DNA of 63,558 nucleotides, filler included, from Conidiobolus incongruus B7586 (lineage: Eukaryota), in NCBI GenBank assembly GCA_000697335.1. It is 5 parts of 5 records of this genome, joined end to end, with 100 filler letters (N's around TTAATTAATTAA, not from the genome) between each part and the next. Parts side by side here need not be neighbours in the genome. Positions count along the whole stretch, not along the records: positions 31,639 to 38,337 come from JNEM01006294.1; 4 more parts are not named here. The stretch is one strand, 5' to 3'. A program made the translations under genes and the position numbers. The notes under the pieces are model-generated. The model was not told where the DNA came from and did no database searches. It saw only the letters and a program-made list of their open reading frames with translations. Position 1 is the first letter of the stretch. Every line of letters starts with the position of its first letter. Shown in pieces: positions 6,396-59,794 of the stretch.

Positions 6396-9006
6396 TTATT
6401 ATCAAACTTTATATTATTTTTGTGAATTAATTGTATTCTACTATTATATTCAATTTTTATTCTTAGTATTTTACTTTCACATTCCATTAATATATTTATA
6501 TCTAACTTTAAAAATTAATAATATCATAAATTTTCTATTTTATCTAACTTTTTCACTATTATTTTAATATTTTATTTATATATTTTACGTAATTATATTA
6601 TTTTTCCTTTTTTTCAAATTCATTTCTATTTCTTTCAGAATATTTATATTTTAATCATCACTAATTACAATTAATAGTAGAGAACTTTTCATATAAATTG
6701 TGTAAAATAATATTGTATAAAATATATTTAACTGTATCATATTACCTTTAATTTTTGATATAATCATTATTTTGTAAAAATAACAAAAAAATTCTATAAT
6801 ATAAATTAATTATTTATTATTCAGTTTAATTATTTTTATTAGTATTATATATAAATGATTTTATATTAAATTATTTTAAATATTATTTATACTTTATTAT
6901 TTTTATAAATTTCTAAAATTGTAATACTTTTAATTTCAATTTTTATATGATAATTTTTTATAATCAATTGGAAATTATTTCTTTAGTATAATCATTTAAA
7001 TTTCTACACTAAATGGTTAATTTATATAAAATATTTGAAATAAATTATGGATTAATAATACTTGCTAATTCATTGATTTGTTATTGGTTATTAGTGACAA
7101 CTGTAATTATGGGAGAAAATAGACTTTTAGAGCTTAAATGGGGAATCATCAGTGGTAAACAATAGATTACCACAAACAAAGGAAATTAAGGGGGTTCACC
7201 AAATTAGGTGAAAGTAGCTTACTGCAAATAAATATCTCACACTTGTCACAACTCAATACTTTTGTGAGTGTTATGAGAAAAACTTAAAGACTGTATACTT
7301 TTGGAAATGAAGATAGAAAGATGTGTTTATTAGTTTGCTTATGATAATCTTATATTAGTTTTCATTGTGGATTTTTGTGGACATGAATGACTTATGGGTG
7401 GAAAGTGATGAGTTCAAACAGTTTATGAAATGAGGTACCTCCAATGTGACTTCTTGAATCAGTGTGGTAATCAGAGTTTCTTGGGTGATTGACAGGATTA
7501 TTTCCTGTCATTAGTTGCTCTTAACTACTATTCTATTTTGGTTTTATACAAAATCAATAAATTAATTATTTTTTACAGTTATTATATATATATTGTAAAA
7601 AAGTACCAAAATTATTTTAATTATAATTTTTTTAATAAGAAATTGTTTAAATTCCTGTTTCAAACTAAAAAATTCTAAAATTTAAAATTTTCAAATGAAA
7701 TTTAAATATGTATTGGGTAATATATGAGGTTTACAATTATAGAAACCATATTAAATATTACTAATTTTAAAAGAGATAATTTTATAACTTATTTATAATT
7801 ACTAATTTAAAAATATGAACTATTACCAATATAAACCATTTCGGTAGAATAAATTATCAAATATGATATTTATATGACCAAACAATATTAGATGCATCAA
7901 TGATCAGTATAAAAATAAACTTTGAATATTTGGTTTTGAATTTAAAGGTTTTTATTTATATTTATTTTGAAAATATTTATTTCTCAAAAATTGGAGGTTC
8001 TGACAGTGCAACCATTTCTGTAAGTTATTTCAAGTGTGATGATAAATATTAAGCAATCATTCTAGCACAAGTCTCCCATTATTTTGTTTTTTATCAAATT
8101 TAATAGCTTTGTAAAAAATTTAATTTTCTTTATATCTCAATTTTTTGGAAAAATAATATGCACATGTGATAATATTAAGAATTCAGCAATTCATATACAT
8201 CTTATAAAATTATTTATTTATTTTCGATTTATTATTTACACTAATGGATTCCAATATTATTGGCATTTGATAATTTATCAAGCAATAATATAGGCGGCGG
8301 AAATTATATTATGCACTGGTATTACAAGCACCAAAGGTAACTCTTCGAGTTAATATCCATGATTATTCAAGTTTCAACCGGAATAAATTCCATAATTTAA
8401 TTTAAGTTAATTATATTGAAATTAAAATAATGTCGAAAGTAACTCACATAATAATGCTAATTAATCATTATGGACTTTATAACGAGGATCATTATAAAAA
8501 TATTATGGAATTGATGGTTTATTTTAATATTTATAGGAAGTTAATATACTTTCAAGTTGAATATAATCTGATTTAAAGCGCTCGGAGGATAGGTGAATAT
8601 GAACTAGTTTAGCTTTTTATACGATTATTATCTGAAGTTATCCATGATTAGGCGATATAGCCAAAAAACCTACCGAAGCATTGTAAAAAGTTGATAATTA
8701 ACTTTAATATGATAGAGTTGAATAATGATCCTTGTCAAATTTGATCAATTTTTATTAATTATTTAATGGAATTATTAATTAAGCATTAACAACTAATCAA
8801 AAAGATTCAAATATTCTTAATTGAGAAATGCGTGTTCATTGATGGATGATAAGTGGTGAAGCAATGTAAGTGATTTAATCAAATTAACATAAACGAGTGG
8901 TATATTAATTGATTAAATCAAAAAGTCAATCTGAGTTGGTAATACAAATGCATATATATATACCCGATCAATACCTTCATTGATTTCTTTAACTCTGAAA
9001 GTTTCT

Positions 9007-9933
9007 ATGCGAAATTTTAGTATGAATCCTTGGTTTATACTAGATTGTTTTGAATGTTTAAAATTTTTTAGTGCTATACTAATTAATGGTCTTCTATTAT
9101 TTATTACCTACAATCGTTTTCATCTTAAAGGTGTAGATGTTTTTGTGTCTTTTGTCGTATGTATAATTGATATTCTATTCTGTGCTTTCGTTTTAATACA
9201 CATTATTCTCTATTGGTCAACTGGAACTAATATCAATTCAAATCCTATGTATTGTCGAATCAATTTCGTTGTGTATTATTCTTTTGCAACAGCTGGATTT
9301 CATGGGATGGTTACTCTAGGGATACTGAGGTATTTGGCCATTTGCAAAAATATAATTATGACCGAGATTAAGGCTATCATAATAATGACAATTAGTACAT
9401 CTGTCCAAACTACATTGTTAATCTACTTAATCACGACAAATGATCCCCTAGCCATTTCTGAGAAATTATTATGTTCAGTTAATATCATCGCACCATCACC
9501 ATCTTTTTATATATCACTTTGGATGATTATTATTAATTTCTTTTATTTAATGATTATCATATTTTGCTATTTAAAAATATCTATTTATTATTTTAAAAAA
9601 TTGAGCTTAATGGAGTCAAATTACTTATCAGCTCAATCATCGATCAATATCAAGAAAAAACTGTGTCGAGAAAAGTTAATCACAGTATTAAAAACAAATG
9701 CAATTATGGTCATATTTATTGTTCAAGTATTACCTAAAAGTATATTTGATCTGGTGAACTTCTTTACTGTTGACGCACTGGATCATATTTCTGAAGCTAT
9801 CACTTTATTTATTATCAATTTTTTCCCTTTGACCTATCCTATTATGATCTTATTCTTTCATGATGAAACTCTACAGGAAATGAAATTACTTCAAGTTTTA
9901 TGGATTGCTAGAATTAAAAAATTATTTCATTAA
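9007..9933 (+). CDS. Family A (rhodopsin-like) GPCR-like 7TM protein
   Basis: Intronless ORF with seven hydrophobic segments, Cys at the top of TM3 (YCRIN), a DRY-like LRYLAIC, IIFCY in TM5 and an NPxxY-like YPIMILFF. Start is ATG 9007 or 9022. Confidence 0.75.
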   Translation: MRNFSMNPWFILDCFECLKFFSAILINGLLLFITYNRFHLKGVDVFVSFVVCIIDILFCAFVLIHIILYWSTGTNINSNPMYCRINFVVYYSFATAGFHGMVTLGILRYLAICKNIIMTEIKAIIIMTISTSVQTTLLIYLITTNDPLAISEKLLCSVNIIAPSPSFYISLWMIIINFFYLMIIIFCYLKISIYYFKKLSLMESNYLSAQSSINIKKKLCREKLITVLKTNAIMVIFIVQVLPKSIFDLVNFFTVDALDHISEAITLFIINFFPLTYPIMILFFHDETLQEMKLLQVLWIARIKKLFH

Positions 9934-16050: not shown

Positions 16051-17760
16051 TTAGTATAGAAATTAAGAAATTATAAGTGTGGTGGTAAATACCAATATAG
16101 TGCAGAGGAAGGCTTAATATAAAAGTAGCGTGACACAGAACGTGGTACTATAACGTGGCTATAGCGTGCAAATGTAAACAAAGTTTAATTAAGCTTCAAA
16201 CTGGGATGAGTCACTGATATATTAAGATTTATATTAGGTAGTGCCAATATACTGTAATATTAACAGGATATAATCTTAATCTTAGAAATAGTGAAAAAGA
16301 TAAGAAATAGTAAGAATTGAGAGGAAAAAAAAGAACCTAGTTTATTAGATAATTCAATACTATTTATACAATTAATTTAGCTATAAAAGTATAAATTAAT
16401 CATATAATTTATAGTTAATTAAATTATATGAAAATATATATAAGAATTTAGAGAACTAGTCTCTTAACAGAAATGGTATATTTTTTAACTTTTGATCTTT
16501 TAAATATATTATAAGTTTTGAGAAATTATTTATATATAAAATATATAGGAAATTAAATATTTTCAAACTATATATATATATATTCAATTATAACTATTTT
16601 TTTTATTAAAATATTTTAATTTTAAAATTTATAATTAAATTTAATTATATATAAATTAAATAATAAATATCAAATAGCTTTTATTTTTGTATTTTTAAAA
16701 CTTAACTATAAACCCATTAAAATTATTTAAAGATTATAAATAGTTTATAAAGATGATATTTTATTTAAAATTATTATTTATTGCTAGGTTTATGATTTTA
16801 AAGCTAAAAGGGACATTATTTAAAATTTATTAAAATTTAAAAAATTAATTTCTATTATTATTTTTTTACTTATTAATAAAATAAAAAAAATATTTTAATA
16901 AATTACTTTTTATTTTAGTTAAAAAATTATTAAAATAATTTAATATTATTATATATAATTGAGTTTAAACTTAAATTAATTAATAAAAATATAAAATAAA
17001 TACTTAATAAATTAACAAAACTTAAAAAAATTAAATTAACTATAATTTAATTAAATTTATTAAGATATAACTAAAAACAAAGGTTTTGGTAGTAAATACT
17101 TATAATTAATAAATCTTAAACTTTTTGATATAATTTGTTATTCAAAATAAAATAAAATATTTGGTTAAATTAAATTAATCCTTTTCAAAAATTTTAATGA
17201 ATAAATATTTTAAATATAAATAAATATTAATTGATATAATAAATTATAATGATATATAATTTTCTTATTTAATATCTTAAAGAAAATTAATTAATTAATT
17301 AATAATAAACTTTATATTATTTTTTTAAATAAAATAATTTTTAAATAATATTCTTAACATAAATTAAAAATATTTATTATTTTGTATAATAATTATAAAA
17401 TACATAAAATTAAAATTATAAAAGATTTTTTATATAAAAGAATTAGAGAAAGTAATTACATTTAATATATTCACTTATTATAACTTATATAACTATAATT
17501 GTTTCAAATAATTAAAAAATTAGCTCATAAGAAAAAAAACTCCTATAAAAAAATTAAATTAATTTATATAACATCAAATTTCAGTCTTTAATAAAATGAA
17601 TTTTTTTAGGTGTTAAAAACTTGCAAAAAATATAAAAAACGCTATTAATAATAAAAAAAGTATTAATTTTATATTGTTTATTAAATTTTATATTGTATTT
17701 ATTAATTTATTTGTTTAATTTTAATTTTAAAATTGTGCCACTACTTAATTTTTACACTAA
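16051..17760 (+). mobile_element. Full-length degenerate mariner (copy B), ~1.3 kb, interrupted by a solo LTR
   Basis: TA-flanked. The left TIR (ttagtatagaaattaagaaat|ggtata) is the inverse of the right TIR (tgtgccactacttaatttttacactaa). Colinear with 59795-61069. Confidence 0.88.
16072..16469. mobile_element. Solo LTR (copy 1) with 5-bp TSD GAAAT
   Basis: Termini TATAAG (from TGTAAG)...CTTAACA. GAAAT lies at 16067-16071 and 16470-16474. Homologous to 33342-33708. Confidence 0.85.
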
Positions 17761-17996
17761 TAATTTAAACTTCTTATTCAAATTCTCTATCAAATTAAAT
17801 TAAAATCGGGATTATTGATCCCATAAATTTGATTAATTGTAAAATATAATTTAAAAGGATAAACTTTGATAATTCTTAATTTTTTGGTTCAATTTTAATC
17901 ACCCATTCATTTATAAATAATTAGTTTTTAAAAAAAATTATAATTTAAATTGATAGAATAATATATTTATATATTATAGAATTAATTCTTTAAAAA

Positions 17997-20619
17997 ATGG
18001 GAAAAGTGAATAATGCTGGTCACCACCATAGGGCGTCCAGTTTAAAACAGAGTAATAAAAAATTTAAATCGAAACATAGCTCAAAAGGTGCTTTGAAAGA
18101 TAAGAATAAGGGTAACTCTACTATCAATAATATATAAATTGAAAATGATTGATTTAATCGTTAAATAGGCAAAGTTAACCGCAAAGCTATCGCTCAAGGT
18201 AAAAAGGATGGATTGTTAAATAAGAACGATCGTAAGAATTCCGCTAAGGTTGGGATGAAATTCAAGCACCAGCAATTAAAAATGAATACTAAGGTATTTG
18301 AAGGCAAGTTTGGTGCTCCTAAGATTGTGGTAATTATAAAATTATATTCAAAGTTTGATAATGTTGGTTGTTAAATATTGATTCAATAGGCTTTGGTTCC
18401 TCTATGTCCCGATGTCAGTGTTGTAGATTTAGCCCAAAAGTTAGCTGAATCGGTTAATCAACCTTTCGAAATTCAAGGGAATAAAATCACTTTAAGGTAG
18501 TAATTATACTATATAAAGAATTAAAAGAGTGATTAATGTTTTTGATTAGTGCACCTCAACTCAAGCAACGTCTCCAATTAGTATTACTCACCAGAGATAT
18601 TTATGATGTTATGGATGCTTGTAAAGTTGCCGACTATATCGTCTTCTTGTTGTCTGCTCAAGTTGAAGTTGATGCTCTTGGTGAGACTACCATTTCTTGT
18701 GTTCAATCACAAGGTGCTCCCTCAGTTTTCAATTTTGTCCAACATTTAGATCGCGAACCTTTAAAGAGAAGACCCGATATTAAGAAGAGTTTGAGTAGTT
18801 TTGTTAATTTCTTTTTCCCTGAACAGGATAAGATTTTGGAAATGGACAACAATATGGTATTTACTAGAGTAATAGTATTATTAGATGGAATATTAAATCA
18901 TTAATTTAGGAATGCTTAACTACTCTTAGATCGATGGTTAGTCAAGTTCCCAAAGCAATGCCTTGGAGAGAAGGTCATCCCTATATTTTAAGCGATAAAG
19001 TCGAATTTGTCCCCAATCAAGATCAACCCGGTACTGGAACCCTTAAAGTTACAGGTTTCCTTCGTGGTGCTAATTTAAATGTCAATAGATTGGTTCATAT
19101 TCCCAATTTTGGTGACTATCAAATTGAAAAGGTTGAGAAAGCTGATCATCCTTTTGCTCGTCAACATAGTAATATGGATGAACAAATGACTGATTCTGAT
19201 AATATGAGGTTATTGGCTGTACCTGATCCTGAATTACAAGAATCTTTGATCTCAAGCAATGAACCCGATATGATGGAAGGAGAACAAACTTGGCCCACTC
19301 AAGAAGAATTATTAGAAGCTGAAAATGCTCTTAAAAACTCTCAAAACCAATCTAAGAAGGTGAGAGTTCCTAAGGGTACCTCATCCTACCAAGCCGCTTG
19401 GATTGTTGATGACGAGGATGGTGAGGATGATGGTAATGATGAAGATATGGATGTTGATGACGAAGAAGAGGAAGAAGTTGTCTATGAACATGATCAACCA
19501 GAAGAATACGAAGAAATTGATATGAACGAAGATGCCAAATCTGTTGCTCCTTTCGATGTCTTAGATGAAGAGGAAGAAATGAGACAATTTGAAGAGTATA
19601 AGAGACAGCGCGAAGCTGAAAGAAAAGAACAATTGGAGTTCCCTGACGAAGTTGACACACCTCTCAATGTTCCCGCTAGAATCCGTTTTCAGAAATATCG
19701 TGGTATGTTGAGTATGAGAACTTCTCCTTGGGATCCCTATGAAAACTTACCTCAAGATTATTCTCGTATTTTTCAATTCCAAAACTTTGCTAGAACTAAG
19801 AAGAGAATTCTCAGTCAAGCTAATGAAGGTGGTATTGAAGAAGGCACCTACATTACTATCCATATTAAGGACGTAAATAATGCTAATGGTCACTTGTACC
19901 ATCCTGAACGTCCCTTCATTGTATTTGGTTTACTCCCCCACGAAAATAAGATTACTTTACTTAACTTTGCTGTTAATAAATATACCGAATATACTGAGCC
20001 CGTTCGTTCCAAGGAACCTCTCATACTCCAATTCGGATTCCGCAGATTCCGCATCCAGCCTATCTTCTCCGAACATCATCACAAGGGTAAGACAAATAAC
20101 GTATACAAATTCCAAAGATACTTTGAAAATCATCAAGCCGCTGTCATGTCCCTCTACGGTCCAGTTACTTTTACTTCAGCACCCGTGATTGTTTTCAAAG
20201 AAAACCATACTAATTTATTCCACCCTCAAATAGTCGCAATGGGTAGTTTCTTAGACCACGACACCACTAGAATCATAGCCAAACGCATTATTTTAACGGG
20301 TCATCCCTTCAAAGTACATAGAAAATCCGCCGTCGTACGCTACATGTTCTTCAATCCCGAAGATATCGACTGGTTCAAGCCTATTCAATTGCATACCAAA
20401 CACGGTAAAATTGGTCACATCAAAGAGAGTTTGGGTACACACGGCTATATGAAATGTATCTTCAACGACTTGCCCAAGCAGCACGATACGGTATGTATGT
20501 CCCTCTACAAGCGCGTTTTCCCCAAGTGGACTACGGAAATGTTTGTTCGACCTAACTACGACTACGTACCTCAAGAGTCGCAAGCTCCCAAGGAAGGTCA
20601 TGGTATGGATTTTGACTAA
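17997..20619 (+). CDS. TSR1: Pre-rRNA processing / 40S biogenesis protein Tsr1
   Basis: N-terminal HHHRASSLKQSNKKFKSKH, MEGEQTWPT, RVPKGTSSYQAAW, FPDEVDTP, RFQKYRG and GHIKESLGTHGYMKC. Four introns near the 5' end. Confidence 0.97.
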
Positions 20620-31538: not shown

Positions 31539-31638
31539 NNNNNNNNNNNNNNNNNNNNNNNNNNNNNNNNNNNNNNNNNNNNTTAATTAATTAANNNNNN
31601 NNNNNNNNNNNNNNNNNNNNNNNNNNNNNNNNNNNNNN
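31539..31638. other. Artificial contig spacer N44-TTAATTAATTAA-N44
   Basis: Identical 100-bp structure occurs four times; the 12-mer has stops in all six frames. Confidence 0.97.
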
Positions 31639-31717
31639 ATTTTGTAAATATTAGAAATTAACTAAAAATATAGTAAAAAATGATTAATAGTAAAGAATAT
31701 TAATTTTATAATATATA

Positions 31718-33300
31718 CACTAACTTGTAAAAATGAGTTATAAAATCAAAAATATATATATTTTAATTAATAACTAAAACAATTGTATATATTAGATTAC
31801 TTGAAACTATAATATATAATTAAGGTATATTATTTAATAATAAATAAATATATTTAGATATATTTAGATATATTTAGTAAACTATTAGCAAAAATATTAA
31901 CCTTTAATATTTAACTAAGGTGAGTTATAAATTTGTAGGTTTTTGAGATAAAAGGATATATTTAACAATATATAACCATATCTTTTTTCTTTTTTTGTTA
32001 TTATTTTATATAATATTTTATAGATATACTAAATTTTTTTTATTAGTATTATTATACTTAAATCCCTCTCTAAAAAAATTTACTTGTGTATTAATTAACT
32101 TTATAAAAAAGATAAATTAACTTATGATATTACTAGAATTACTAGTGTTAAATAATTTATTATAGCTAAAGTTATTAAGAATAACAATAAAGAAACATTT
32201 AAACTTAAACTTAAGTGTGTTAAAATTATATATAAACATGATAAGAAGTATATTTATAGGTTAGTTAATATAAGTAAATATAGTATTATTGTAGAAATAC
32301 AACAGGAATTATAAAACTATACAAGAATATTAATTAACACTAATACTATTATATATACTTTATATTAACATAGATACTATTTACACTTTAAGAAAAAATA
32401 CCCCCAACTAAAAAAATCCCATTATAAAACTAAGTGGGAGTTTAAATATCATTATTAATGTTGAACTAAAACTAATTAGAGTAAGGTTATTTAATTTAAT
32501 AAAACAAAAATATACTTTAGTAGATTTAATAAAAAAGTTAAATACTTTAAAAAAAATACAAAATTACTTTATAACTATTATGTTAATTTTACCCAAAAGT
32601 ATAATAGTAGGTTAATTATTATTTAAGGATATATGTTGTTTTTAAGTGTAAAGTATCTTTGTAAAGTTAATAGGGGAATTAATATTAAAATGTACTAAAG
32701 TATTTTAAACAATAAATTGAAAAAAACCATTGAATAATATAGGTTAAACAAATCTAATGTTATTTTCTAGTAAGATAATACCTTTTGTTATACTATAACT
32801 TCTATTACCAAATAGCTTAAAAATAATAAGATAATAGTTATAAAGTAGCTTCTTTAATTTTTTAACTTTAATTTAATTAAACACCTTTAGGATTAGTTAA
32901 AAAAAATTATTAAAGCTTTCCCCCTAGTAAAAAATTTAAATCAACTTTAAAAATATATTTAAGAAGCATAGAATAAAATTAACCTTTTTTAGTATAAGAA
33001 GTTAGTTGATTCTATACCCCACAAACTTAAAGAAGTTAGAAAAACTAAAGGTAGATACATTAAGTTTTAATTTTTTTTTATCACCAAAAACCTACAAATT
33101 TATAACTCACCTTAGGTAAAATTTAAAGGTTTATATTTTAACCAATTAATAGCTAAATATTATCATTTAATGATATATATAACTAATAAATATAATAGAT
33201 TTTAATTATTTAATTTAAGTTTATTTTATTAAATATTAATCAAGTTATTAGTAAAAATATAAGTGTTTTTGATTTTATAACTCACTTTTATAGGTTAGTA
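31718..33300 (+). mobile_element. Full-length degenerate Tc1-family (DD34E) transposon with long IR/DR terminal repeats
   Basis: TA-flanked, with ~240-bp TIRs (e.g. ctaaggtgagttataaatttgtaggtttt at 31915 versus aaaacctacaaatttataactcaccttag at 33087). Relics of FQQDNAxCH (32765), WPPQSPDLNPIEHLW (32846) and LVDSMP...KGGYTKF* (33002-33070). Confidence 0.92.
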
Positions 33301-33341
33301 TATATATATATATATTCATGTATATTTATTTTTTATATATT

Positions 33342-33708
33342 TATAAGTATAATAATAATAAAACTAATATAATATAGAGGAAAACTTAATATAAAGTAGT
33401 GTAGCTTATAGCATAGTATTGATAATATAGCAAAATGATATAAATATAAATAAAGTTTAATTGAGCTTTATAAACAAATAAGTTAACACTGATATATTAG
33501 ATTTTATATCAGGTAATGCTAATATATTATAATACTAACAGAATATAGTCTCAACTTTAAAAATATTAGAAAAGATAAGAAATAATAAGAATTAAAAGGA
33601 AAAGAACTTAGTTTATTAGATAATTCAATATTATTTATATAAATAATTTATAGTTGAATAAATTATACAGAAATATATATAAGGATTTTAAGAATTAGTC
33701 TTTTAACA
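33342..33708. mobile_element. Solo LTR (copy 2) with 5-bp TSD ATATT
   Basis: Termini TATAAG...TTTAACA. ATATT lies at 33337-33341 and 33709-33713. Colinear with 16072-16469 but more AT-shifted. Confidence 0.85.
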
Positions 33709-35144
33709 ATATTTTATATTAAATTGTTTATTTGTATATAATCTCAAAAAAGTTTTATTACTTAGGATTCCAAGTAATATTAAATAGTTTTAAATTTTTA
33801 TTAAATAATATATGAAAAAAGATATAATATCAATAAATTATCATTTAAAATAATTTATCTTCTCTCTAAATAGCACCCTCTTTTACCATTTGAATTTACC
33901 TAACTTTGAAAAAAGCTGATATTTAATTCAAATATAAAATAAATCAACTTAATTTTTATTTTTCTACATAAGATTTGGATATCTTTGAACTTTGAGCTTA
34001 GTATTAAGAATCCCAAGGTAATTGAATTCACAAGGATCGATATCAGATGAATATGAGCCATAAAATAATACATTCAATGATTTTTTAATATTGAATTTTT
34101 GACTATGATTAATAACATTTGCATTTTCTTGACAAAATAATGGAGTTTTTAAATTTTTAATCTTGGCCAATCATCCAGCATATTTCCCAATAAACGACTA
34201 TATATTATTACTTTCATTGTAATTATATTGGGTAATAAATAAAAATATGGACTGAATTATAGCCCAATCTCATTACCAAATGTCTTTCCTTTTCATTTTA
34301 TTCAAACTTTGGAATTTTTTTAGAAATTAGCGAATTTTTTCAATTAAAATGAAAATATATAAAAGGAATAACATAGTAAGAAGGAACAAAATTTCACCTA
34401 TAACCATATATTTCTCAATATACTAAATCTAGAATGATAATTTGAAAGGTTCATCGTAGCATTTTATACTCTTTATTGCTTTTGTTTTGGGATAAAACAT
34501 AAGGTATCCTTTTTCGAACAACTCAAATTATATGGTTAGAAAATAACAAATTTTAATAAAATTATATTTTATTTGAATGATAATTCTCGTAGAAAAATCA
34601 AAGCGTTTTGATATATATTAACCTTTTGAAATATAAGTTTGTTTTTATAATGCTAAGGAGTCCAAACCAAGAGGTATTTTAATAATCTATGATTCTTGCA
34701 CGAAGTATTTAATCCAATAATTTATGGTAGCAATAGTATAAGCATTATATGAATGCGCTCTCTTTAAATTTTGATATATTTGGTAAAGTATAAAATCAGC
34801 TAGATAAGATGTTTTTACATATAATCATTGATTGAATTTGTCAATAGTTAAGCTTTAGTTTACAGTTGCCAAATAAAATGAGAATATAACATTTTATTAA
34901 AAATTCTGATACTGAATATTTATTCAATGTTGCAATATATTTTTGAATTGTTTTTAAAATGCCATCTCGAATAAATTATAATGATATTGTACAAATTTTT
35001 TTAAATTTAATTAATAACCTTTGATAAAAAATTAGAAAATTTATGATATTAAAGTGGTTTTTATGATAAAATTGGTTAATTGAATTAGACTTTGAAATAT
35101 AAATAATTTAAAAACTTTACTTCAAACTTGAATCTATTCTAAAA

Positions 35145-38100
35145 TTAAACTATACAAAAATCTAAACTTCCCTGTAGATCGAGACCTTGATAAACATCCG
35201 ATATGACAAATACACCATAGCTGTACTTGCCACCCTGGCCAGGTGTCAATATTTCTAATTTAACATTATACACATTCTTGTCAGGCACAATGGTGACACG
35301 TTTCATTCCTAAGATCAAATCTTTCTTCATATCTGCGACAATAATCCACCAAGCTTCTTCCTGAATTTTATGGAATTTGGGAGCGTAGGCACGACCGGTA
35401 TAGCGTCCATTACGCGTTAGGGTAATTTGAACTTTTTGGTGGACGTGAGGCTTGTATTGCGGGATGGACCCACTCGAAGGTAATGATATCTGAAGTTTCG
35501 GCATTTGGTCCAAGACTTTAGAAATGTCGGCGATTTGGTCGCGAGATAAGCCGACCTTTGCTAGGACTTTGGACGTGGCGGACCTGGGGGCGTTGATAAT
35601 TTCAGCTAGGCATAGCACTGGGGGATTGAGGGTGTTGAGTTTGGTTACTATGCTGTCGTCAATCCAGGGTAATTGTTTTAGAGTGGAGTCGGTAGGCCAT
35701 GCAGCTTGCTTAAGTGCTTGGAGACAGTTCGCCACATTCAACAGTGTAGTGAGATGGCCCTTGTAGCATGTGACATCTGCAATAGCTTGCAAGATACGAA
35801 TGGCCTGATCCAAAACGGTGCCAGTATCGGTAACGTAATCAGCAATTGGGAGAGTAGCATGCGACAAGAATGCTTGCAGCAACAGGAACACTTTGGCGTT
35901 GGGACGATCGTAACTCATAGGATATACAGGATAGGGAACAAGTGCTTCGAGATCCTGATTATACAAATCTTCGTTATGACGCACGGGATGTTCGATATAT
36001 TCTTCCGAATTCGCCAAAATTCTTAAGAGATCTTGGAATTCTGTATCAGCTGTCAATTCATTGTAGAATTTGCGAATGGATAAGTGACTCAAGTAGTAGT
36101 GTGATGCGATTTTACCCAGTTTGATAGGTGCTACGGCGTCGAATTCATTCTCTTCAATACAACGCGATTTGATTAACTCCCTGAAGGAATTGTCAATCAT
36201 GCGGGACATGTACTCGCGAACAGAATTGGGTGTAGCATCTTGAAGACCGTAAAACGTTGGATTCATTCTCAATCTCTGGTAAAGATAAGTCCAAGTCAGG
36301 TAATCCATAGCCTCCTGCTTATTGGTAATCGTACCCGATGCAATTTCGGCGTTGAAATGATCATCCAAACACTTGTGAAGTTTGGATTCCACCGGGAATG
36401 GCTCGTGAAGGAATTTCTTAAAGAATTGTTTCTTGGTGTCGATCGTAAACACACGAGCAATGGCTGATGTATCGAATTGGGGACGTCCGGCACGTCCGAT
36501 CATTTGTAAAATGTCGGTGAGGTCGTAGTCGATGTAACTGTTGGTCTTGGCGTCGAAGTATTCGGTTCCTTTGACAATGACCAAATGTGCTGGGAAGTTC
36601 ACACCCCATGCCAGAGTACTGGTGGCAATGAGTACTTGAATCTTGGAGTTGACAAATAATTCTTCGACCAACTTACGATCGGATTCGACCAAACCAGCGT
36701 GATGTAGACCAATACCGAACAGAATGGTCTCCTTGAGACTTGCATCCTGAATCCTCTCCACCAACATTTCCACATCCTCTTCTGGCATATTGAGGAATTG
36801 TTTGGGATTATCCTCAGTCGCACAGAATTTGATAAGGTCGCGAGCTGTGAGACGCGTCTGTCTTCTCGATGACACGAACACAATCACTGGCTTGGAGGGA
36901 GAGTGTGTGCGGATTGCCTTGTAGGTGGGACGATTCATCACCTCCATTCTGGGGCAGTAGTGCTTTCCGGAAAAGCCGTCAATATAAATTTCGAGGGGAA
37001 CGGGTCTTACGGAGTGTCGGAAGTTGAAGAGCCCCTTCTCGTCAATGCCCAACCAAGCTGCGAGATCGACAGCATTAGCTAAAGCTGTGGAAAGTCCTAC
37101 AATTCTGATGTGGCGACTGGTCTTAGAACTGATGAAATTCATACGTGATACGATCACTTCGAGAATGGGGCCGCGATCGCCACCCAACAAGTGGATTTCG
37201 TCAATGATCATAAGGGATACTTTCTTAACATATTCTCTGGATTGCCATCCACGACTGATACCGTCCCACTTTTCAGGAGTAGTGATAATAATGTCGGATC
37301 TTTCGATGGTACGAATATCTGGAGTGACATCACCAGTCAATTCGACGACTGTCTTACCCATCAAGTCGGACAATCTGGAAGTCCAGTCGGAAATACGTTC
37401 TTTAACCAACGCCTTCAAGGGTGCGATGTATACAACTTTAGAGTCGGGATGGTCCCTGAAAGCTTGCCACATAGCGAGTTCAGCCGCGACAGTCTTACCA
37501 GAACCTGTAGGAGCGCCAATCAAGACATTGTAGTCGTGATGGTAGAGCGAGTGGAAGATTTGCGTTTGGATAGGATTGAAGTGAGAGAATCTACGACCAC
37601 AAATCTCTTCAAGAACAGGATCCTGCAAAGCTGTAATAGGTAAAGGATTCAACTTTAATAAGTTAGTATGCTGCGATTTGAGCTGGGGTAGGACAAGATT
37701 GTGGAAAGACACTGGATGTAAAGTTTCGGCACCGATCCATCTATCAGAAATAGCTCTAACGAAAATTTGGGGTGGTAGAGGCTCTGGAATGGGGATGGTA
37801 AACATAATCTTAATCTCCTCATTCATATTCTCCTTGCTGATAAAGAAGTGCTCGGAATGGTATAATTCCATATTGTCCGTATCTTCTACCCAGAGATGAT
37901 AGGGTTCGCCGGTGCCGTGGACTTGATCACTCCATACGAAGTCTGGATAAATGGTCACCTGCATTCTCAATACATTGCGAGTGATTGGGAACAGTTCTAC
38001 ATCCAATTCTACCTTGGGGAATTGCTGAACACATTTGAGTAAAGTTGGACCCATTCTCATAAAGCGGACCATGTCGCCCAATTCATTCGCACTCATTGTC

Positions 38101-38337
38101 GACAGTTGCTCAATCGTAAACTCTTGGGTCAAATCCTCCAACTTCATTCTCAAATTTTCGGGCAGTTCAAATTGTGCGAGGGGATGTTGGAATGACCACA
38201 TGCGCTTCTCGATAGATTTGCAGAGTGATAAAAGAACTGCGGCAGTGGGACCCCAATTTCTGTTGAGGGCAATTTCAAATACAGCTCTGAAGATACGGCC
38301 AGCATTTTGGGATACGTAATAACTGTCGGAGACTAGG
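35145..38337 (-). CDS. SLH1: Ski2-like helicase Slh1/ASCC3 (second helicase cassette + Sec63 domain), 5'-truncated by gap
   Basis: GAPTGSGKT, TTPEKWDGISRGW, DEIHLLGGDRGPILE, LAWGVNFPAHLV and QMIGRAGRPQFD. These residues fit Slh1/ASCC3 better than Brr2. Confidence 0.92.
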
Positions 38338-38437
38338 NNNNNNNNNNNNNNNNNNNNNNNNNNNNNNNNNNNNNNNNNNNNTTAATTAATTAANNNNNNN
38401 NNNNNNNNNNNNNNNNNNNNNNNNNNNNNNNNNNNNN
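38338..38437. other. Artificial contig spacer
   Basis: N44-TTAATTAATTAA-N44. Confidence 0.97.
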
Positions 38438-43161: not shown

Positions 43162-44917
43162 AGCAATAGTTGAAATCAGTCAAGCGAGAATACCAGAAAA
43201 ATCGAAACAGATAGCAAATCAAGTATGTAAATCTTGATCTATACGAAATAAAAATGTAAAATTTAAAGAATTGATATTTCAAAGAAAATTGAAATCTTTT
43301 AATTTTAATATATGCTGATGATTAATGTATTTTTAATGTCCTTTTGGAATTAAAAGGTTGGCTTTGAATATGAATGCTGAATTGTATTTATTATGATGAT
43401 GTTTCTAGATTCATTCCAAATCCCCATCACCTAATTTCCTAATTAAGTCATATTTGTTAAATCAATTTGGAATTGAGTTCTAATTTTATCCTCAAAATAT
43501 CATGTTTCAATTTGATTGGATGTTTATTTTATTTTTTCAAAAGATATCAAATATTTATAACAAGTGACTTGGCAATTTTATTACTAGATTATATATTTTT
43601 TATTATTTTGAAAATAACTGATTATAATATTGAAAGAATTAATTTAGATATTTGGATTGTACAGAACATGGTTAAGGTTGATATACAAATTATGCCATAT
43701 ATTTGATAACATTATTTTATCCAACAAACTGGAAGTGAAATTACCGTATATTTAACACATCATAATTCGAAAATAACTACGCATAAAATAAATTATAAAA
43801 CAAATTTGTCATTTTCCAAATCTAGATAAAATTGATATTTAAACTAAATTTCAATTATTTTATATCAATCATCATTGTTCTGTACATGATTTTAATAATA
43901 TGAGAAATTTTTACCTTAGAACTTGGCCAAAATTGTTTAAATTTAATCATCCTTGCCCAAGTCCTGTATGAACTCCAGAGACCTCAACGTCAATCCTAGA
44001 AGACTGGTTTGATTAATTGTTAAATAATGAAAGAGTATGTTTTTTATAAATTGATATTATGATTTATTTTTATATAATATTAAGGACATTTAAAAATCTT
44101 GCTTGACCCAAGTTATATTTGCAAATATCGATAGTTACCATATTCTTTGCTTTTATTATATTTGTCACAAATGATTACCTTGTGCCAAGAGTATTCACTT
44201 ATTTTGATGAGTAATTTTTTTTGAAATCTGTAATATAATTAATTGAATATTACTTATACTTTTAATGCTTTTACCCTCAATATATTTATTGGCTTTCACT
44301 ATTTTTTAATTATAATATCAAGATATAAACTAATATAATATTGTTCAATAATTAATTTAATATTTCAAGTGTACTTTTTTTGTAATCTTTTTAATTTCAA
44401 TTTTGATTCTTTTTAATACTTTAATTTTTTAATTATATATTTCTTTTTAGGACTATTAATTTTATAACATTATATAAATATGACAAAGATGATAAATTCT
44501 CATAATATATTTTTATATTGAATAACCAATCCAAAAAAATAATTTATAAAAATTTTCATACCAAGGTCAAAAACAAAATCTCTCTTTATGAATATAATTT
44601 ATTTTACAGTTTGTTAATCATACTTATTTTCTAGTATCATTGTGATATTAGAATAAAGCTTACAAAATAAAAGGATATAAGTATATTGCTAATATTTGAT
44701 TAATAAACCAAGGAAATTAGTATTGGTTATAATTAATTAAATTAGCTTTATATTATAATTATAAGGAATTATTTTTATAATTAAAAATAATTTGATAAAT
44801 TTATTAATAATGGAATTAAAAATAATATATATACTAAGTTTATTATAATATAGTTAACTTAATAGATAATATTAATTGTTTCAGTATATTAATCCTAGGA
44901 TTCAAAATAAAATTAAT

Positions 44918-45017
44918 NNNNNNNNNNNNNNNNNNNNNNNNNNNNNNNNNNNNNNNNNNNNTTAATTAATTAANNNNNNNNNNNNNNNNNNNNNNNNNNN
45001 NNNNNNNNNNNNNNNNN
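44918..45017. other. Artificial contig spacer
   Basis: N44-TTAATTAATTAA-N44. Confidence 0.97.
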
Positions 45018-45510
45018 TTTTATTTAATTCTTAAAAGAAAATTAATTAATAATAAACTTTATATTTTTTTAAATAAAACTATTTCTAATTAGTATTCTCA
45101 ATATAATTTAAGAAAACCTATTATTTTATATGATAATTGTAAAATACATAAATTTAAAGTTATAAAAAACTTTTTAATTAAAAATAACTAGAAAAAACTA
45201 CTATATTTAGTATATTCTTTAGATTATAACTTATATGATTATAATTGTTTTAAGCAATTCAAAAACTAGCTTATAAAAAAGAAAATTTCTACAGGAAAAT
45301 TTAATTGGTTTGTGTAATATCAAATTTTAGTCTTTAATAAAAAGAATTATTTTTTAAGTGTTAGATCTTTGCTAAAAGTATAGCAAAAAGTTATTAGAAA
45401 TAAAAGAAATTATTAATTTTATAATATTTAGTTATTTTTACTTTTTATATATTAAAATGTTTACTTTTTTTCAATCACAAAAAATTCCCATTATTTAAAT
45501 TACAAAGTAA
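45018..45510 (+). mobile_element. Degenerate mariner 3' half (copy E)
   Basis: cctattattttatatgataattgtaaaatacat (I L H>Y D N C K I H) is near-identical to 60676-60708. Ends in a TIR-like ...cccattatttaaattacaaagtaa-TA. Confidence 0.85.
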
Positions 45511-47330
45511 TAATTTATTATAATGAAATTAGAGTTAGTTGCTTTATAATTCAAAATATGTATATCAACCAATTCTAATTATTGAGTGATAGAAAAATGT
45601 TAAAAAATAATATAGTATAATATAAATTTAAATATTTTGATATCTTTTTATAATATCAAATTATTAAGAAAAGCTTATGATAAAAGAGTTATAATTTTAA
45701 TCTTAAAAAATCAGGAATTTATGAAGTTGTAAATATCTAACTATCAAAATAAAGATGAAAAAAATTGATAAATATAATATTCTTATCAGATTCATTTTTA
45801 TTTCAATGTTGATGATTATTTATATATAATGATATTAAAGGTTATAATAATATATCTTATATTATTAAAAGTAAATAATTATAAATTTATTATTGAAGGT
45901 GTAAAATATTAAAAAAGATTAGTAAATTAAAAAAAATTTAAATAATTTTTATAAATATATTTAAACTTAGATTTTTTCGTAGATCATGCCTTATCATTCA
46001 ATCAAGTATTATTGAAAGTTTTAATAATTGTTTGGTTAATAAATAAATCATTTAAGTAACAAAATACTGTATATTTCATATAAGTGTATTATTATCGTTA
46101 AATGGATAATAGGATATATAAAATTATAAATAATATAAAAACCAAAATTTGTAAAATATTTAGTATTAATTTACTATCAAATTTAATTTCAAATAAACTT
46201 AAATGTTTTAGTAAATAAATTATTCGTTAAATTGGTCAAATTAATGGAAATTATATTTTGATATAATTTGTTAGTATTTTCATTGTAAAATTGATATATA
46301 TCATTGTGTTATAGTTTATGTGATATGTTTTGGTGAAAAAGTACATTCTCTTAAATATCTGAAGGAGATTTTTATTAAAATATTATATGATCAAGCTTGA
46401 GATTTAATTCGATGATATATTAATATAAAGAAAATTTTTAAAAATATCAAGATTAAAATGATATTTTCAGTCTTTTCGTTATATTACTCATCCTTATGAT
46501 TTACATGAATTTATTTTAATTTTACCAAATAATTTGTGACTCATATCTCAGTATTGTAATCCAATTGAGCTTAAACGTGATAAATTTAATAATCAAGTAT
46601 TAAATATAACAACAGAGAGTTATTTTTAATAGTAATTTATCTCGTTGAGTAATGCCAATCTGTTCTTTAATGCCACATGCCAAAAAACTAATATTCGATT
46701 GCCTTAATCTAGCCATCAAATATATATCAATTAATAATTTTCTCCACTATTATTTATCACCCAATCCTTATTTCCTGACCAACAATATATTCATTTAATA
46801 TTACTTTTGAAGATGATGAAAATCAAAAATATCTTCACTGACTCCGCACTTAGCCTAATAGTAATCCTAGCCTCTAATATCAATTTTATAGTACCAAAGT
46901 ACATCATTTATCATACCATTATTAAACTATAATTTCAGTTTGCCATTTCTATATCAGTTGATTTATTATTAATATATTAGTAGATGTAATTTTGAATATT
47001 TTATAAATTGAAATAACTTAAGTTGAAATACTATATTATGTACTGTATAAATTGTTGCTTAACTAATTTTGTTGAAACATCCAATCATCTAGTCTAAATG
47101 GCCCATACATTTATAGAAATCACTTCATTTAAACTATTTTCACTTTTATTATTCCCCTGCAAATCAGATAAAATTTGTTCCAATTAAATTCCTATAATTG
47201 ATATTTGTTCAACTTTTCTCCCTCTCATTAATTATGCATTTACAGGAATATAAATAGGGCGATGAATCCAAAAATTTTGAAATAATTTAAATTCTGATTA
47301 ATTTAATATATACATAGATTTTGATTAAAC

Positions 47331-48392
47331 ATGAGACAAAGAATAATTTCATCGCAAACTATATCAACCAATTTAGATGATACAGATAAACCATTGAACT
47401 TATTTGAAAAGAAACAGTCTACGATCAAGCAAAGACTGGTTATAAAATGGGAAGATGCTCCTGCCTGGATGAGATCAGATCATATTCTGGATGGATACCG
47501 TCAAATAACCAACTCCTATATTGGATGTTTTAAATCACTTTTTTATCTTCACAATGAAACTGGCAATGTCTATACTCATTTTATAGGCTCTATAATTTTC
47601 GTTATTCTTGGAGTAACTACTTTCTACTTGTTAAGCCACCATTCAATTCAATCCAATTGGCTAGTGAATTGGCAAGATTACATTGTGCTATATACTTATA
47701 TCTTCTGTGCAATTTCTTGTCTCGTATTATCCTCCTGCTTCCATCTCTTTTTATGTCATTCCGAACCTGTTAAAAACCATTGGAACAAATGTGATCTTAT
47801 GGGCATCGTCCTTCTAATTGTTGCATCCTTTTATCCAACCATCAATTACGCATTCTTCTGTGAGCCTTTTTGGAAATTGACTTATCTCATCAGTATTACG
47901 AGTTTAGGATCTTTAACAATTGTCCAATGCTTTCTCAGTTATTTTTACTCCGAAAAATACAGAGTCTTCAGAACTTTAAGTTTTATCTCTTTGGCATTAA
48001 CTGGATTTGTTCCTATAATTCATTACTTCGCTAAAGTTGGGGTAATTATAAGGTATTAAATCATAAAATTATAGCTAATTAAATTTATTACAGGTTATAT
48101 CGGCTATTCAATATGCTCCTATGCAGTACATAGGATGGATGGCTATATTCTATTTAACTGGTGCACTAATTTACTTGTACCGACTACCTGAAAGATTTTT
48201 CCCTGGCAAATTCGATTATTGGGTAAGTTTGTCACATCACACTTACATTATGAACCAAACTAATAATCAATTTTTTAGTTTCATTCACATCAAATCTTTC
48301 ACGTCTTTGTAGTAATTGCAGCATTATTCCATTTCAATGGAATTTTACACTCATTTAAAACGCATCATAGTAATTTTATAGGTTGTTTTTAA
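47331..48392 (+). CDS. PAQR/IZH (HlyIII, adiponectin-receptor-like) protein, 3 exons
   Basis: GYR, HNETGNVYTH, FHLFLCHS, DLMGI and PERFFPGKFD..FHSHQIFH. Two introns near the 3' end. Confidence 0.93.
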
Positions 48393-49936
48393 ATTTGAAT
48401 TTCAAATAATTGAATTTAAATCAGTTCTATATTGTTATCAAATTTATTCATTAAAAACATATTCAATATAGTGGAATATTCTTTGATTTAATAAAATTTA
48501 CGGATTTAAAGAAAATCATATCTGATTTATTACATGCTGATGATTGAAAGTGATTTATCACTTTTTCATTGAATTTTCTTATAAATTGTTAGCAATAAAA
48601 TAATAATTGATAATACAGGATTAAATACATTATTTATTTCACTCTTTTATATCAAATAAACTCTTTTAAAGTATAATTAGATATTTGATTAACGTTTTGA
48701 TTAATCAATATTTACCTGTCTATTTCTTTTAATTACAACTAATTACTTTAAAATGCCACTAACCATCCAATTGTTTGATAGAATAATGACTACTGTAAAT
48801 ATTCACCAAATTGATTCTTAATATTGAAATCAAAATTTAACTCCTCAAATTGATCGTGAGATGTACCATAATAATTATGGATTAACTTTATAAAACTAGA
48901 TCTCAAATTGAATTAGTTTTGAAGATTGATACTTTGTATATTAGATAACAATTTTGATAAATATCAATCCAATCTCAACTATCTATAATAATGGATCTAT
49001 AATTATTCAATGCCGATACCTATCCGAAAAAAATTCGTCCTTCACCATTATTTTACAAATTTCAAAAAATTCATTTTAATCCATTTTTTCATCAATTTTA
49101 TTGTAAATTCGAAAATTATTGACCAATAAAATCATTACCCTTCAAAACTGGACCAATTCTTTTAAAAATAATCTTAATTCATAAAGTTTTCAAAAAAAAA
49201 TTTTTTTATCTAAAACCTAAACATAAATTCCAAAGATATGAAATAATTTAATTAATCCGATATCTATTCGGAAAAACTTATCAAAATTTAATTCATTCAA
49301 ATGTATTTTATTTCAATTCTGAGGGCATTTATTGAAATCAATCTTTTTTAGAGTTTACCTTAATTTTAAATTAATAGTTTTTACTTGTCAAAAGTTTTAG
49401 CTTATGTACTCAATTTTTAGAATGGTTGTAATTATTTGGAATAATGAGAGTTCATTATGGTTACTGGTTTCAAATTACATTACTTTACAAAAAGTCTTCA
49501 TTGGATTGTTGCTAAGAGATTTTTAATCACAGCTAATTTTGTTTGATCGTTGACATAAAAATTACCAAATATATTGAATTATATTGATTTATTCCACATT
49601 CTGTATTATTAATATCTGATAAAATGTATTGAATTTAAGTAATATTAGCAAAATTTGAGGTATGAACCTTGGTTTTTACTCAAACTTGAATTAAGCCTAT
49701 TTCCATTTTGGGATGAGCCAAAACTTATGAACATTTTAGAATATCCATTATTTTAAAAAATTTACTGAAAATACAAAGAATCATTGTGATGGAAATCTTA
49801 ATTTCTTATTTTGAACCTGAATATAACCATTAAAACTTAATTTTATATAAAGTACTTGTTAATTCAAGTTAAATCCTAATTTTTCTTTTATTAATCATTT
49901 GTCTCTTAGTAGTCAAAATTTTTTGGTAAAAATAGG

Positions 49937-50932
49937 ATGAAAGAACAAAAAGTTTATGAAATTTTGTCTAGTACAAAAGGTTCAGGGTCTTCCCCTTCGG
50001 TTACAAAGCCCGAAACCACCAAAGAACCCACGGAAACTTCGCCTTTAGCACCTCTTCATAAGACTTACAAAAAATTGGTGTGTACGTTTAGGGAGCTGCC
50101 TGCTTGGGCTCAGGATAATATCTACATTCAGACGGGGTACCGAATCCCAACTAATTCTTACTACGAATGTTGGAAATCCCTTTTCTATTTTCATAACGAG
50201 TCGGGTAATGTGTATAGCCACTTGATCGGAGCTATCACTTTTATTGTATTTGCTTTTACTACTTCCTATTATCTCGCCTATCACTCCAACCAATTAGGCG
50301 AACTGGTCAAATGGAGTGACTGGGCCGTCATTTACACATTTATTGCAGGGGCTATCTTTTGTCTTGGATTATCGTCCCTCTTTCATCTATTTTCCTGCCA
50401 CTCCGAGGAAGTGTGTGCCAAGTGGAATAAGTGTGACTATGTTGGTATTGTTTTCCTTATTGTAGGTTCCTTCTTCCCTGCTTGTTATTACTCATTCTTC
50501 TGTGATGAGTTTTGGAAGAGTGCCTACCTCACAATGATCACAATACTAGGGATTGGTACAACATTTATCTGCTTCATCGATAAGTTCAGAACACCCCAAT
50601 ACCACAAAGTTAGAACATCGGTATTTTGTTTGTTGGGACTTTCTGGGGTAATCCCCATCACCCACTCATTGATCAGGGACGGGTACGAAAAATTCTCCAG
50701 CTCGCCACTTTTCTCATGGCTCCTCGGTATGGCGGTCTTCTATCTCGTAGGAGCATTTATATATGCCTATCGAATCCCTGAGAGATGGTTTCCCGGAAAA
50801 TTCGACTACCTGTTCCATTCCCATCAGATTTTCCACGTGTTCGTCCTTACTGCTGCCATTTTTCACTATGTCGGTGTGATCAAAGCATTCTATTTCCATA
50901 ACTACAATTTGGGTGGTTGTCTCTTGGTTTAA
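49937..50932 (+). CDS. PAQR/IZH protein, intronless tandem paralog
   Basis: HNESGNVYSH, HLFSCHS, DYVGI and PERWFPGKFDYLFHSHQIFH. Confidence 0.95.
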   Translation: MKEQKVYEILSSTKGSGSSPSVTKPETTKEPTETSPLAPLHKTYKKLVCTFRELPAWAQDNIYIQTGYRIPTNSYYECWKSLFYFHNESGNVYSHLIGAITFIVFAFTTSYYLAYHSNQLGELVKWSDWAVIYTFIAGAIFCLGLSSLFHLFSCHSEEVCAKWNKCDYVGIVFLIVGSFFPACYYSFFCDEFWKSAYLTMITILGIGTTFICFIDKFRTPQYHKVRTSVFCLLGLSGVIPITHSLIRDGYEKFSSSPLFSWLLGMAVFYLVGAFIYAYRIPERWFPGKFDYLFHSHQIFHVFVLTAAIFHYVGVIKAFYFHNYNLGGCLLV

Positions 50933-59694: not shown

Positions 59695-59794
59695 NNNNNN
59701 NNNNNNNNNNNNNNNNNNNNNNNNNNNNNNNNNNNNNNTTAATTAATTAANNNNNNNNNNNNNNNNNNNNNNNNNNNNNNNNNNNNNNNNNNNN
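59695..59794. other. Artificial contig spacer
   Basis: N44-TTAATTAATTAA-N44. Confidence 0.97.

Follow-up and report, generated by a model that had tools for sequence, protein, structure and literature searches.

The Tc1-like element in this stretch of the Conidiobolus incongruus B7586 genome (GCA_000697335.1) raises the question of whether a fungus outside the Dikarya directs mutation at its repeats, or whether the element has drifted toward A and T together with the DNA around it. The preliminary description of the locus argued for fast, repeat-directed cytosine mutation by a distinct, possibly undescribed defense. The window, i.e., the whole stretch of 63,558 nucleotides that was analyzed, consists of five contigs placed end to end with N-spacers, and gene order across the spacers is not genomic. 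The four spacers (31539–31638, 38338–38437, 44918–45017, and 59695–59794) are identical, each made of 44 N, a 12-base linker with stops in all frames, and 44 N. A mariner-like copy was found at the start of the window and at the start of all four later contigs; contig starts inside such copies are expected if repeats broke the assembly. The Tc1 element lies on the second contig (31639–38337), 80 bp from the contig edge. Two host genes served both as controls and as markers of host identity:

35145–38336, minus strand: exon of a host Slh1/ASCC3-type helicase (Pfam Sec63/DEAD), on the contig of the Tc1 element
17997–20619, plus strand: host TSR1 gene, on a different contig (the first of the window)

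The helicase was 83% identical to that of C. coronatus, with the next match at 63% and ascomycete matches at 53–55%. TSR1 was 87% identical to a protein (P0001) whose cluster includes a Conidiobolus coronatus protein, and in a tree of 25 rows, none of them ascomycete, it was placed as sister to C. coronatus (100/100) within an Entomophthorales clade (100/99). Judged by these two markers, the host is a Conidiobolus (Zoopagomycota) other than the C. coronatus reference and not an ascomycete. The proposed check of taxonomy by TSR1 phylogeny has thus been run, and the suggestion of an early-diverging fungus agrees with both genes. The related claim that flanking genes keep their GC and CpG content can concern only the helicase, to the right on the same contig; the supposed left flanking gene is not a genuine neighbor, because the element sits 80 bp inside its contig and the contigs were joined artificially.

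The element itself is made up of the following parts:

31716–31717: left TA target-site dinucleotide, read from the sequence
31718–31953, plus strand: left long terminal inverted repeat (TIR), about 235 bp, in an IR/DR-type layout whose conserved sequence forms an outer and an inner block, recognized by TIR comparison
32054–33070, plus strand: unshifted reading frame of a dead Tc1 transposase, 338 codons and a stop, interrupted by 22 internal stops and with ATA at the start codon
33076–33300, minus strand: right long terminal inverted repeat
33301–33302: right TA target-site dinucleotide, with a brief run of TA after it

The element spans 1583 bp (31718–33300) with TA flanking both ends, weak evidence by itself in AT-rich DNA, and its TIRs (about 230 bp) are 73.5% alike across 238 columns. 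The transposase reading was searched against 1.84 billion proteins and gave 404 matches at E 0.001 or better, the best being an intact 338-amino acid transposase (P0123) aligned from 6–335 to 6–335 (E 7e-50) without a gap, so that the window copy carries no indel in 1014 nt. P0123 has DDE_3 and HTH_Tnp_Tc3_2 domains above cut-off; the decayed reading retained only a weak HTH_Tnp_Tc3_2 match in Pfam (E 0.03). The first catalytic D, placed at codon 149 by alignment to P0123, is now AAT (G>A), the second (codon 241, GAT at 32774) is intact, and the catalytic E (codon 276) is now AAA at 32879 (G>A). This triad aligns to the D, D, and E of P0123 with 34 residues between codons 241 and 276, i.e., DD34E. 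The two motifs from which the element had been recognized, at 32846–32890 and 32765–32782, contain the codons as quoted, and reversing C>T/G>A alone recovers 14 of 15 residues of intact relatives in the former and 5–6 of 6 in the latter (FQQDNA). The fifteenth codon of the former (CTT) fits the Pro that had been proposed, at a position where intact relatives have Ala or Ser. The spacing between D and E, the TIRs, and the TA target site were likewise found as first described, and together these comparisons confirm, at the level of sequence, a complete, dead Tc1 (DD34E) transposon at 31718–33300.

DNA was available for metagenome loci carrying relatives of the element, and the closest 4 of 72 (L001–L004) were used for nucleotide comparison. 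Like P0123 and the window copy, they have a collinear 338-amino acid DD34E transposase, and they share long TIRs with a common terminal motif and a TA target; in L001, L002, and L004 this motif is that of the window copy save for C>T/G>A differences. They are intact, with a GC content of 0.46–0.57 and 46–86 CpG in the ORF, whereas the window copy has a GC content of 0.19 and no CpG. Horizontal transfer of such an element into Conidiobolus is possible. The inner TIR block of the window copy (31919–31945 and 33085–33111) has the same 27 bases in both arms and still contains G-rich TpG sites, in contrast to the heavy mutation of the ORF. Selection for binding by the transposase, in copies mobilized again after mutation, could explain its retention.

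To determine the spectrum of change, codons conserved in at least 80% of 17 intact relatives chosen from the top matches (139 codons) were taken as the baseline. Of these, 59 were unchanged and 80 differed, and among the latter 75 could be reached by C>T/G>A alone and none by the reverse transitions (T>C/A>G); C>A/G>T would account for 5 and A<>T for 4. In 10,000 shuffles the number reachable by C>T/G>A had a mean of 16 and a maximum of 29, and a chance motif match was rejected on this count. At bases forced by the amino acid, C>T was seen at 19/33 and G>A at 59/92 (78 of 125 C/G), with 3 transversions at C/G, and all forced A/T bases (67/67 A and 51/51 T) were unchanged. DNA columns in which all four relatives agree gave the same picture, with C/G converted to T/A in 142/217 and other changes in 14/403. 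All ten conserved Trp codons and four of five conserved Gln codons are now stops, and both strands are mutated about equally across the whole ORF. Although the "ancestral" bases are inferred from relatives only 59–76% compatible with the element and not from a true master copy, the comparison shows that about two thirds of the C and G of the Tc1 element have apparently been lost to C>T/G>A. The transitions are one-directional and recoverable by reversal, as had been proposed, and transversions and indels are far from proportionally as frequent.

We then compared the repeats with host genes and with "unique" non-coding DNA, defined as DNA with no match elsewhere within the window after a rough coding mask. 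GC content alone does not separate the two (0.17 in the Tc1 element, 0.19 in unique non-coding DNA). CpG dinucleotides numbered 0 in Tc1 against 11.4 expected and 2 in the mariner copies against 18.8 expected, with an observed/expected ratio (o/e) of 0.61 in unique non-coding DNA, and the composite RIP index was +0.83 in Tc1, +0.14 in mariner, and +0.37 in a third repeat, compared with −0.56 in unique non-coding and −0.54 in coding DNA. The mutation signal stops near 33,800, no more than about 100 bp beyond the last repeat copy. Neutral decay to a GC content of 0.19 predicts that 17 of the 118 forced A/T bases would have changed, where none did (P 8e-9), and 29 of 186 columns, where 4 did. In the host genes, which are coding and under selection, the helicase differs from C. 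coronatus at 150 positions with 26 C>T/G>A against 24 reverse changes (15 against 8 when polarized), and TSR1 at 73 positions with 17 against 10. A metagenome scan for DNA of the closest TSR1 relative as a neutral-site control returned 17 pattern matches and no relative, and the host control therefore consists of amino acid differences and composition. The 1974 fourfold sites of ten host genes had a GC content of 0.35 and C before G at 135/545. The restriction to repeats known from RIP was thus seen here for three repeat families set against this window's coding DNA and its unique non-coding DNA, in line with the original view of repeat-restricted mutation over genome-wide drift; by CpG content and index, unique DNA does not carry the signature of the element.

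Three further observations concern DNA outside the recognized repeats. A rhodopsin-family 7TM gene (8935–9933; Pfam 7tm_1, E 7e-8) stood lowest among the ten genes in fourfold GC content (0.20), with C scarce before A or G; possibly it belongs to a multi-copy family that this process has affected slightly. Two adjacent paralogs (47325–48059 and 49913–50932), which we take to be members of the HlyIII (PAQR-type) membrane family, are 46% identical, both open, and of ordinary GC content; this is an old duplication left unmutated. Decayed repeats may also underlie two non-coding stretches (6396–7158 and 44212–44917), which have a GC content of 0.14–0.15 and 0–1 CpG and match nothing else in the window.

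Other repeat copies in the window allowed the direction of change to be followed beyond the Tc1 element:

31639–31717, plus strand: AT-rich piece similar to a mariner-family end, immediately to the left of Tc1 and starting at the contig edge (blastn to 45349–45430 and 60909–61035)
59795–61073, plus strand: mariner-type (DD34D) copy M60, GC 0.198, 0 CpG (Pfam DDE_3, E 1.3e-7; D-34-D counted in translation)
16494–17764, plus strand: mariner copy M17, GC 0.097
45018–45564, plus strand: partial mariner copy at a contig start
38438–39014, plus strand: partial mariner copy at a contig start
1–437, plus strand: partial mariner copy, the most decayed, GC 0.064 over 1–330
16088–16482, plus strand: unclassified third repeat, less-mutated copy with four CpGs kept
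33360–33720, plus strand: unclassified third repeat, second copy with no CpG left

The mariner-type family thus has five copies in the window. M60 is the least decayed, with a 126-amino acid open stretch carrying the DDE_3 match and D-34-D and yet no CpG, and from this copy CpG appears to have been lost first. Over 1267 columns, M17 shows 148 C>T/G>A and 30 reverse changes relative to M60, together with 10 C>A/G>T and 31 A<>T differences; 14 indel events also separate the two. In the older copies, which are shorter, A<>T changes are far more frequent and transitions about as many as transversions. In the third repeat, 33360–33720 has 44 C>T/G>A against 14 reverse changes relative to 16088–16482. 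This repeat lacks a recognizable ORF, and both of its copies adjoin a Tc1 or mariner element. The degree of decay varies among copies, and the C>T/G>A bias extends to at least three repeat families. The saturation of repeats by C:G to T:A transitions, a feature of classical RIP, is hence present in Tc1 and in other copies.

Additional copies were sought in contigs from two of four sequencing runs (one sample, possibly the source of the window), aligned to 31640–33280 at 80% identity or more. At least 41,422 and at least 32,133 contig pieces fell on the element in the two runs, numbers that reflect piece depth and not copy number and that may include chance matches of AT-rich pieces, with an unmutated copy likely to fall below the 80% filter. 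In run X1, variable places along 31640–33280 included at least 111 C>T (129 C), 120 G>A (141 G), 96 T>C (641 T), and 122 A>G (730 A), and at least 42 transversions. At least 231 of the 270 C/G that survive in the window's stretch were mutated in some other copy of this run.

The mutations depend on sequence context. Where all four relatives agree, the fraction mutated by 3′ base was 31/37 for CpA, 10/13 for CpG, 11/17 for CpT, and 17/41 for CpC, and with three-of-four agreement 50/61, 47/55, 33/44, and 30/64, respectively; no CpG is left in the 1583 bp of the element. Ancestral CC became CT in 18 cases and TT in 13, with 6 remaining CC and 2 now TC, and ancestral CG became TA in 4/7 (four relatives agreeing) and 17/35. 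The contexts had been called broad (CC, CA, CT, CG), and all four are indeed hit, but unequally, CpG and CpA more than CpT and CpT more than CpC. By 5′ base the fractions were 25/32 for TC, 32/40 for CC, 13/22 for GC, and 9/17 for AC, and TpC is depleted (o/e 0.56). Among trinucleotides, for which numbers are small, TCG was mutated at 8/10, CCA at 21/23, and TCT at 10/11, a pattern without a TpCpG target. In the comparison of M60 with M17 the contexts were flatter (CA 58/84, CT 64/104, CC 26/46), as expected if M60 had already lost its best targets.

Simulations started from L001–L004 under uniform, CpG-only, CpA-only, 5′-T, and 3′-graded models, and the first four all missed the observed dinucleotides, the 3′-graded model coming closest. 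Decay by CpG-only methylation was rejected, with a simulated GC content of 0.435 and CpA o/e of 1.56 against 0.186 and 0.61 observed, and CpA-only RIP was rejected along with its simulation, CpG being gone and CpT mutated at 11/17. An APOBEC-like 5′-TC target was also discarded, given that the 3′ base explains more and the 5′-T simulation fails. No simulation yielded a GpC as low as the observed 0.57 along with high ApC, so the 3′ grading leaves a 5′ effect unaccounted for. Cytosine methyltransferases give a ranking by 3′ neighbor with CpG first, and the graded 3′ context (CpG, CpA > CpT > CpC) points to known methyltransferase classes; going by these patterns, a methyltransferase accounts for it better than an APOBEC-type deaminase, decay at CpG only, or drift does.

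Several known systems resemble this pattern in part. With RIP of Neurospora and other Pezizomycotina it shares one-way C:G>T:A saturation on both strands, a positive composite index, and dead elements with intact spacing. It differs in its zoopagomycete host, in the reported absence of RID/Masc1 from a congener, and in a context wider than CpA, which is the top non-CpG target here alongside the losses at CpG and CpT. In Zymoseptoria tritici, Dim2 is reported to raise the mitotic mutation rate over tenfold, and almost all of the mutations, which lie in methylated repeats, are C>T at CpA (PMC8016269). C>T in repeats with CpA as a main target is common to both fungi, but the tie to a de novo methyltransferase is Zymoseptoria's (PMC8016269) and the enzyme link here comes from a congener; moreover, more than 98% of the changes described in Zymoseptoria fall at CpA, with CpG spared and rid present, whereas in Conidiobolus, outside the Dikarya, CpG is wiped out and CpT heavily hit. 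RIP-like hypermutation at TpCpG has been described in Pucciniomycotina (Horns et al., PMC3318451) and DNMT1-linked CpG/CpA/CpT signatures in the transposable elements of Dikarya (Amselem et al., PMC4352252). These accounts are similar in a C>T bias in transposable elements outside the RID system and in strong CpG loss, but Conidiobolus shows no TpCpG specificity and its non-CpG loss is about as strong.

Whether RIP-like mutation occurs outside the Dikarya is unsettled. Stajich et al. report a RIP index of 24.2% in Zoophthora radicans and suggest, with major caveats, that RIP may act there (PMC11105155, 2024), while Badet and Croll find RIP-like signatures only in ascomycetes among 1,239 genomes including C. 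coronatus (PMC12543289, 2025). The former study concerns the same fungal order and, for Entomophthoraceae, draws the same inference as ours, but its signal is a windowed dinucleotide index, whereas the Conidiobolus evidence is site-by-site and direction-resolved; its supplements gave no match for PF00145 or orthogroups. We found no report of alignment-based repeat hypermutation in Conidiobolus in the literature searched, which covered few subscription papers. The proposed "distinct, possibly undescribed" defense is accordingly only partly new: an index-based case for RIP had already been made for the relative Z. radicans (PMC11105155), and the 3′ context leads back to known methyltransferase classes. 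What is new is direction-resolved, site-level evidence in a zoopagomycete, with contexts that match none of the CpA, TpCpG, and CpG-only patterns in the literature consulted.

As the best explanation, to which we give about an even chance, the C>T/G>A changes confined to repeats would be produced by host cytosine methyltransferases, with DNMT1 acting at CpG and a Dim-2-like enzyme at CpA/CpT, without RID and much faster than background. Silencing and methylation of transposon copies would probably come about through heterochromatin or RNAi and not by pairing. Methylation would then be coupled to mutation, either because the enzyme assists deamination or because T:G mismatches are repaired poorly, along the lines suggested for Zymoseptoria Dim2. 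Repeated rounds of mutation over time would be needed, because most ancestral CpGs became TpA, which takes one hit per strand. With Trp and Gln codons turned to stops, the likely outcome would be permanent inactivation of the transposon. Candidate enzymes come from C. coronatus, for which DNMT1 (KXN74494), UHRF1-like proteins, and DNMT2 are reported, with neither DNMT4 (RID/Masc1) nor DNMT5 listed (PMC9915587). A further protein, KXN73869, is sister to the Dim-2 clade in the published tree (99.9/97, on a long branch) but stands in the Coemansia row of the table, with "ND" for Conidiobolus, at odds with the tree (PMC9915587). The Dim-2-like enzyme is thus a candidate, placed by way of a congener and a long branch.

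The other readings share some of this evidence. Complete CpG loss is predicted equally by passive deamination, which counts against the methyltransferase reading. If the 5mC of dense silencing methylation at CpG and non-CpG sites were slowly deaminated by hydrolysis, possibly in resting spores that persist for long, mutation would be a mere by-product. In keeping with this, CpG is the most completely lost context, copies vary in decay with older ones also collecting A<>T changes and indels, and 5mC deamination is established chemistry (PMC13297926). The rate is harder to reconcile with slow decay: C>T per site (about 1.0 after correction) is roughly 30- to 80-fold above other changes (3/243 forced bases; 14/403 columns), at non-CpG sites too, and the 1014 aligned nucleotides hold no indel. 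The C>T excess at mammalian methyl-CpG is roughly 10-fold. The excess seen here argues for acceleration, and we consider passive decay improbable, though a serious contender. Somewhat less probable still is a true RIP analog, in which a RID-like enzyme, so far unrecognized in this lineage, would mutate duplicates sensed by homology during the sexual stage or in resting spores. The RIP-type indices, CpA as the top non-CpG target, hits on both strands over the whole ORF, and the end of the signal close to the last repeat copy would all suit it, as would the Z. radicans index and enzymes with a RID-like domain layout reported, with caveats, in Entomophthoraceae (PMC11105155). The strong loss of CpG and CpT is nevertheless unlike a CpA-only model, DNMT4 is "ND" in the C. 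coronatus row (PMC9915587), and Muszewska et al., who also note that Conidiobolus genomes vary widely in DNA-transposon load, describe no fungal-type RID outside the Dikarya, with no RID/Masc1 there in 633 proteomes bar a bacterial-like chytrid enzyme (PMC5751038).

The remaining three readings are considerably weaker. A cytidine deaminase (AID/APOBEC-like) acting on transposon DNA would leave a pure C>T/G>A spectrum, depleted TpC, and somewhat more mutation after a 5′ pyrimidine, all of which were seen; however, a 5′-T model leaves CpG and CpA undepleted and overshoots the loss of TpC, and the greater effect of the 3′ base, the CpG count of zero, and the nearly equal strands along the ORF make this very unlikely. 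Genome-wide drift, with the element as old neutral DNA in an AT-rich genome, gains from the element's GC content, which is near the value for unique non-coding DNA, itself somewhat short of CpG. It is largely refuted by the unchanged forced A/T bases and columns, by the balance of the host genes against C. coronatus and their fourfold composition, and by mariner copies at a GC content of 0.06–0.10, below unique DNA, and we regard it as highly improbable. Ascomycete RIP, on a contaminant contig or in an ascomycete before transfer, is the least credible of all: the window does consist of joined contigs and the element may have come from another host, but the helicase on the same contig is by far closest to C. 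coronatus, the repeat families are common to the contigs, and tens of thousands of differently mutated pieces in the same runs would need amplification and mutation in the host.

The process works like RIP in outcome and, on the methyltransferase reading, is best filed as a variant of methyltransferase-linked repeat mutation, in a phylum where its occurrence is disputed. The data also suggest why k-mer screens miss such cases, since decayed repeats are nearly identical in GC content to unique non-coding DNA; gene callers and Pfam miss these elements too. With DNMT1, one Dim-2-like enzyme, and no RID reported in C. coronatus (PMC9915587), C-to-T mutation without RID becomes testable with few candidate genes. 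More broadly, it is possible, though on balance doubtful, that Conidiobolus, and perhaps the Entomophthorales generally, evolved an active equivalent of RIP without RID, in which a divergent Dim-2-like enzyme and DNMT1 recognize repeats and convert C to T at CpG, CpA, and CpT; targeted repeat mutation would then predate the Dikarya or have arisen twice in fungi.
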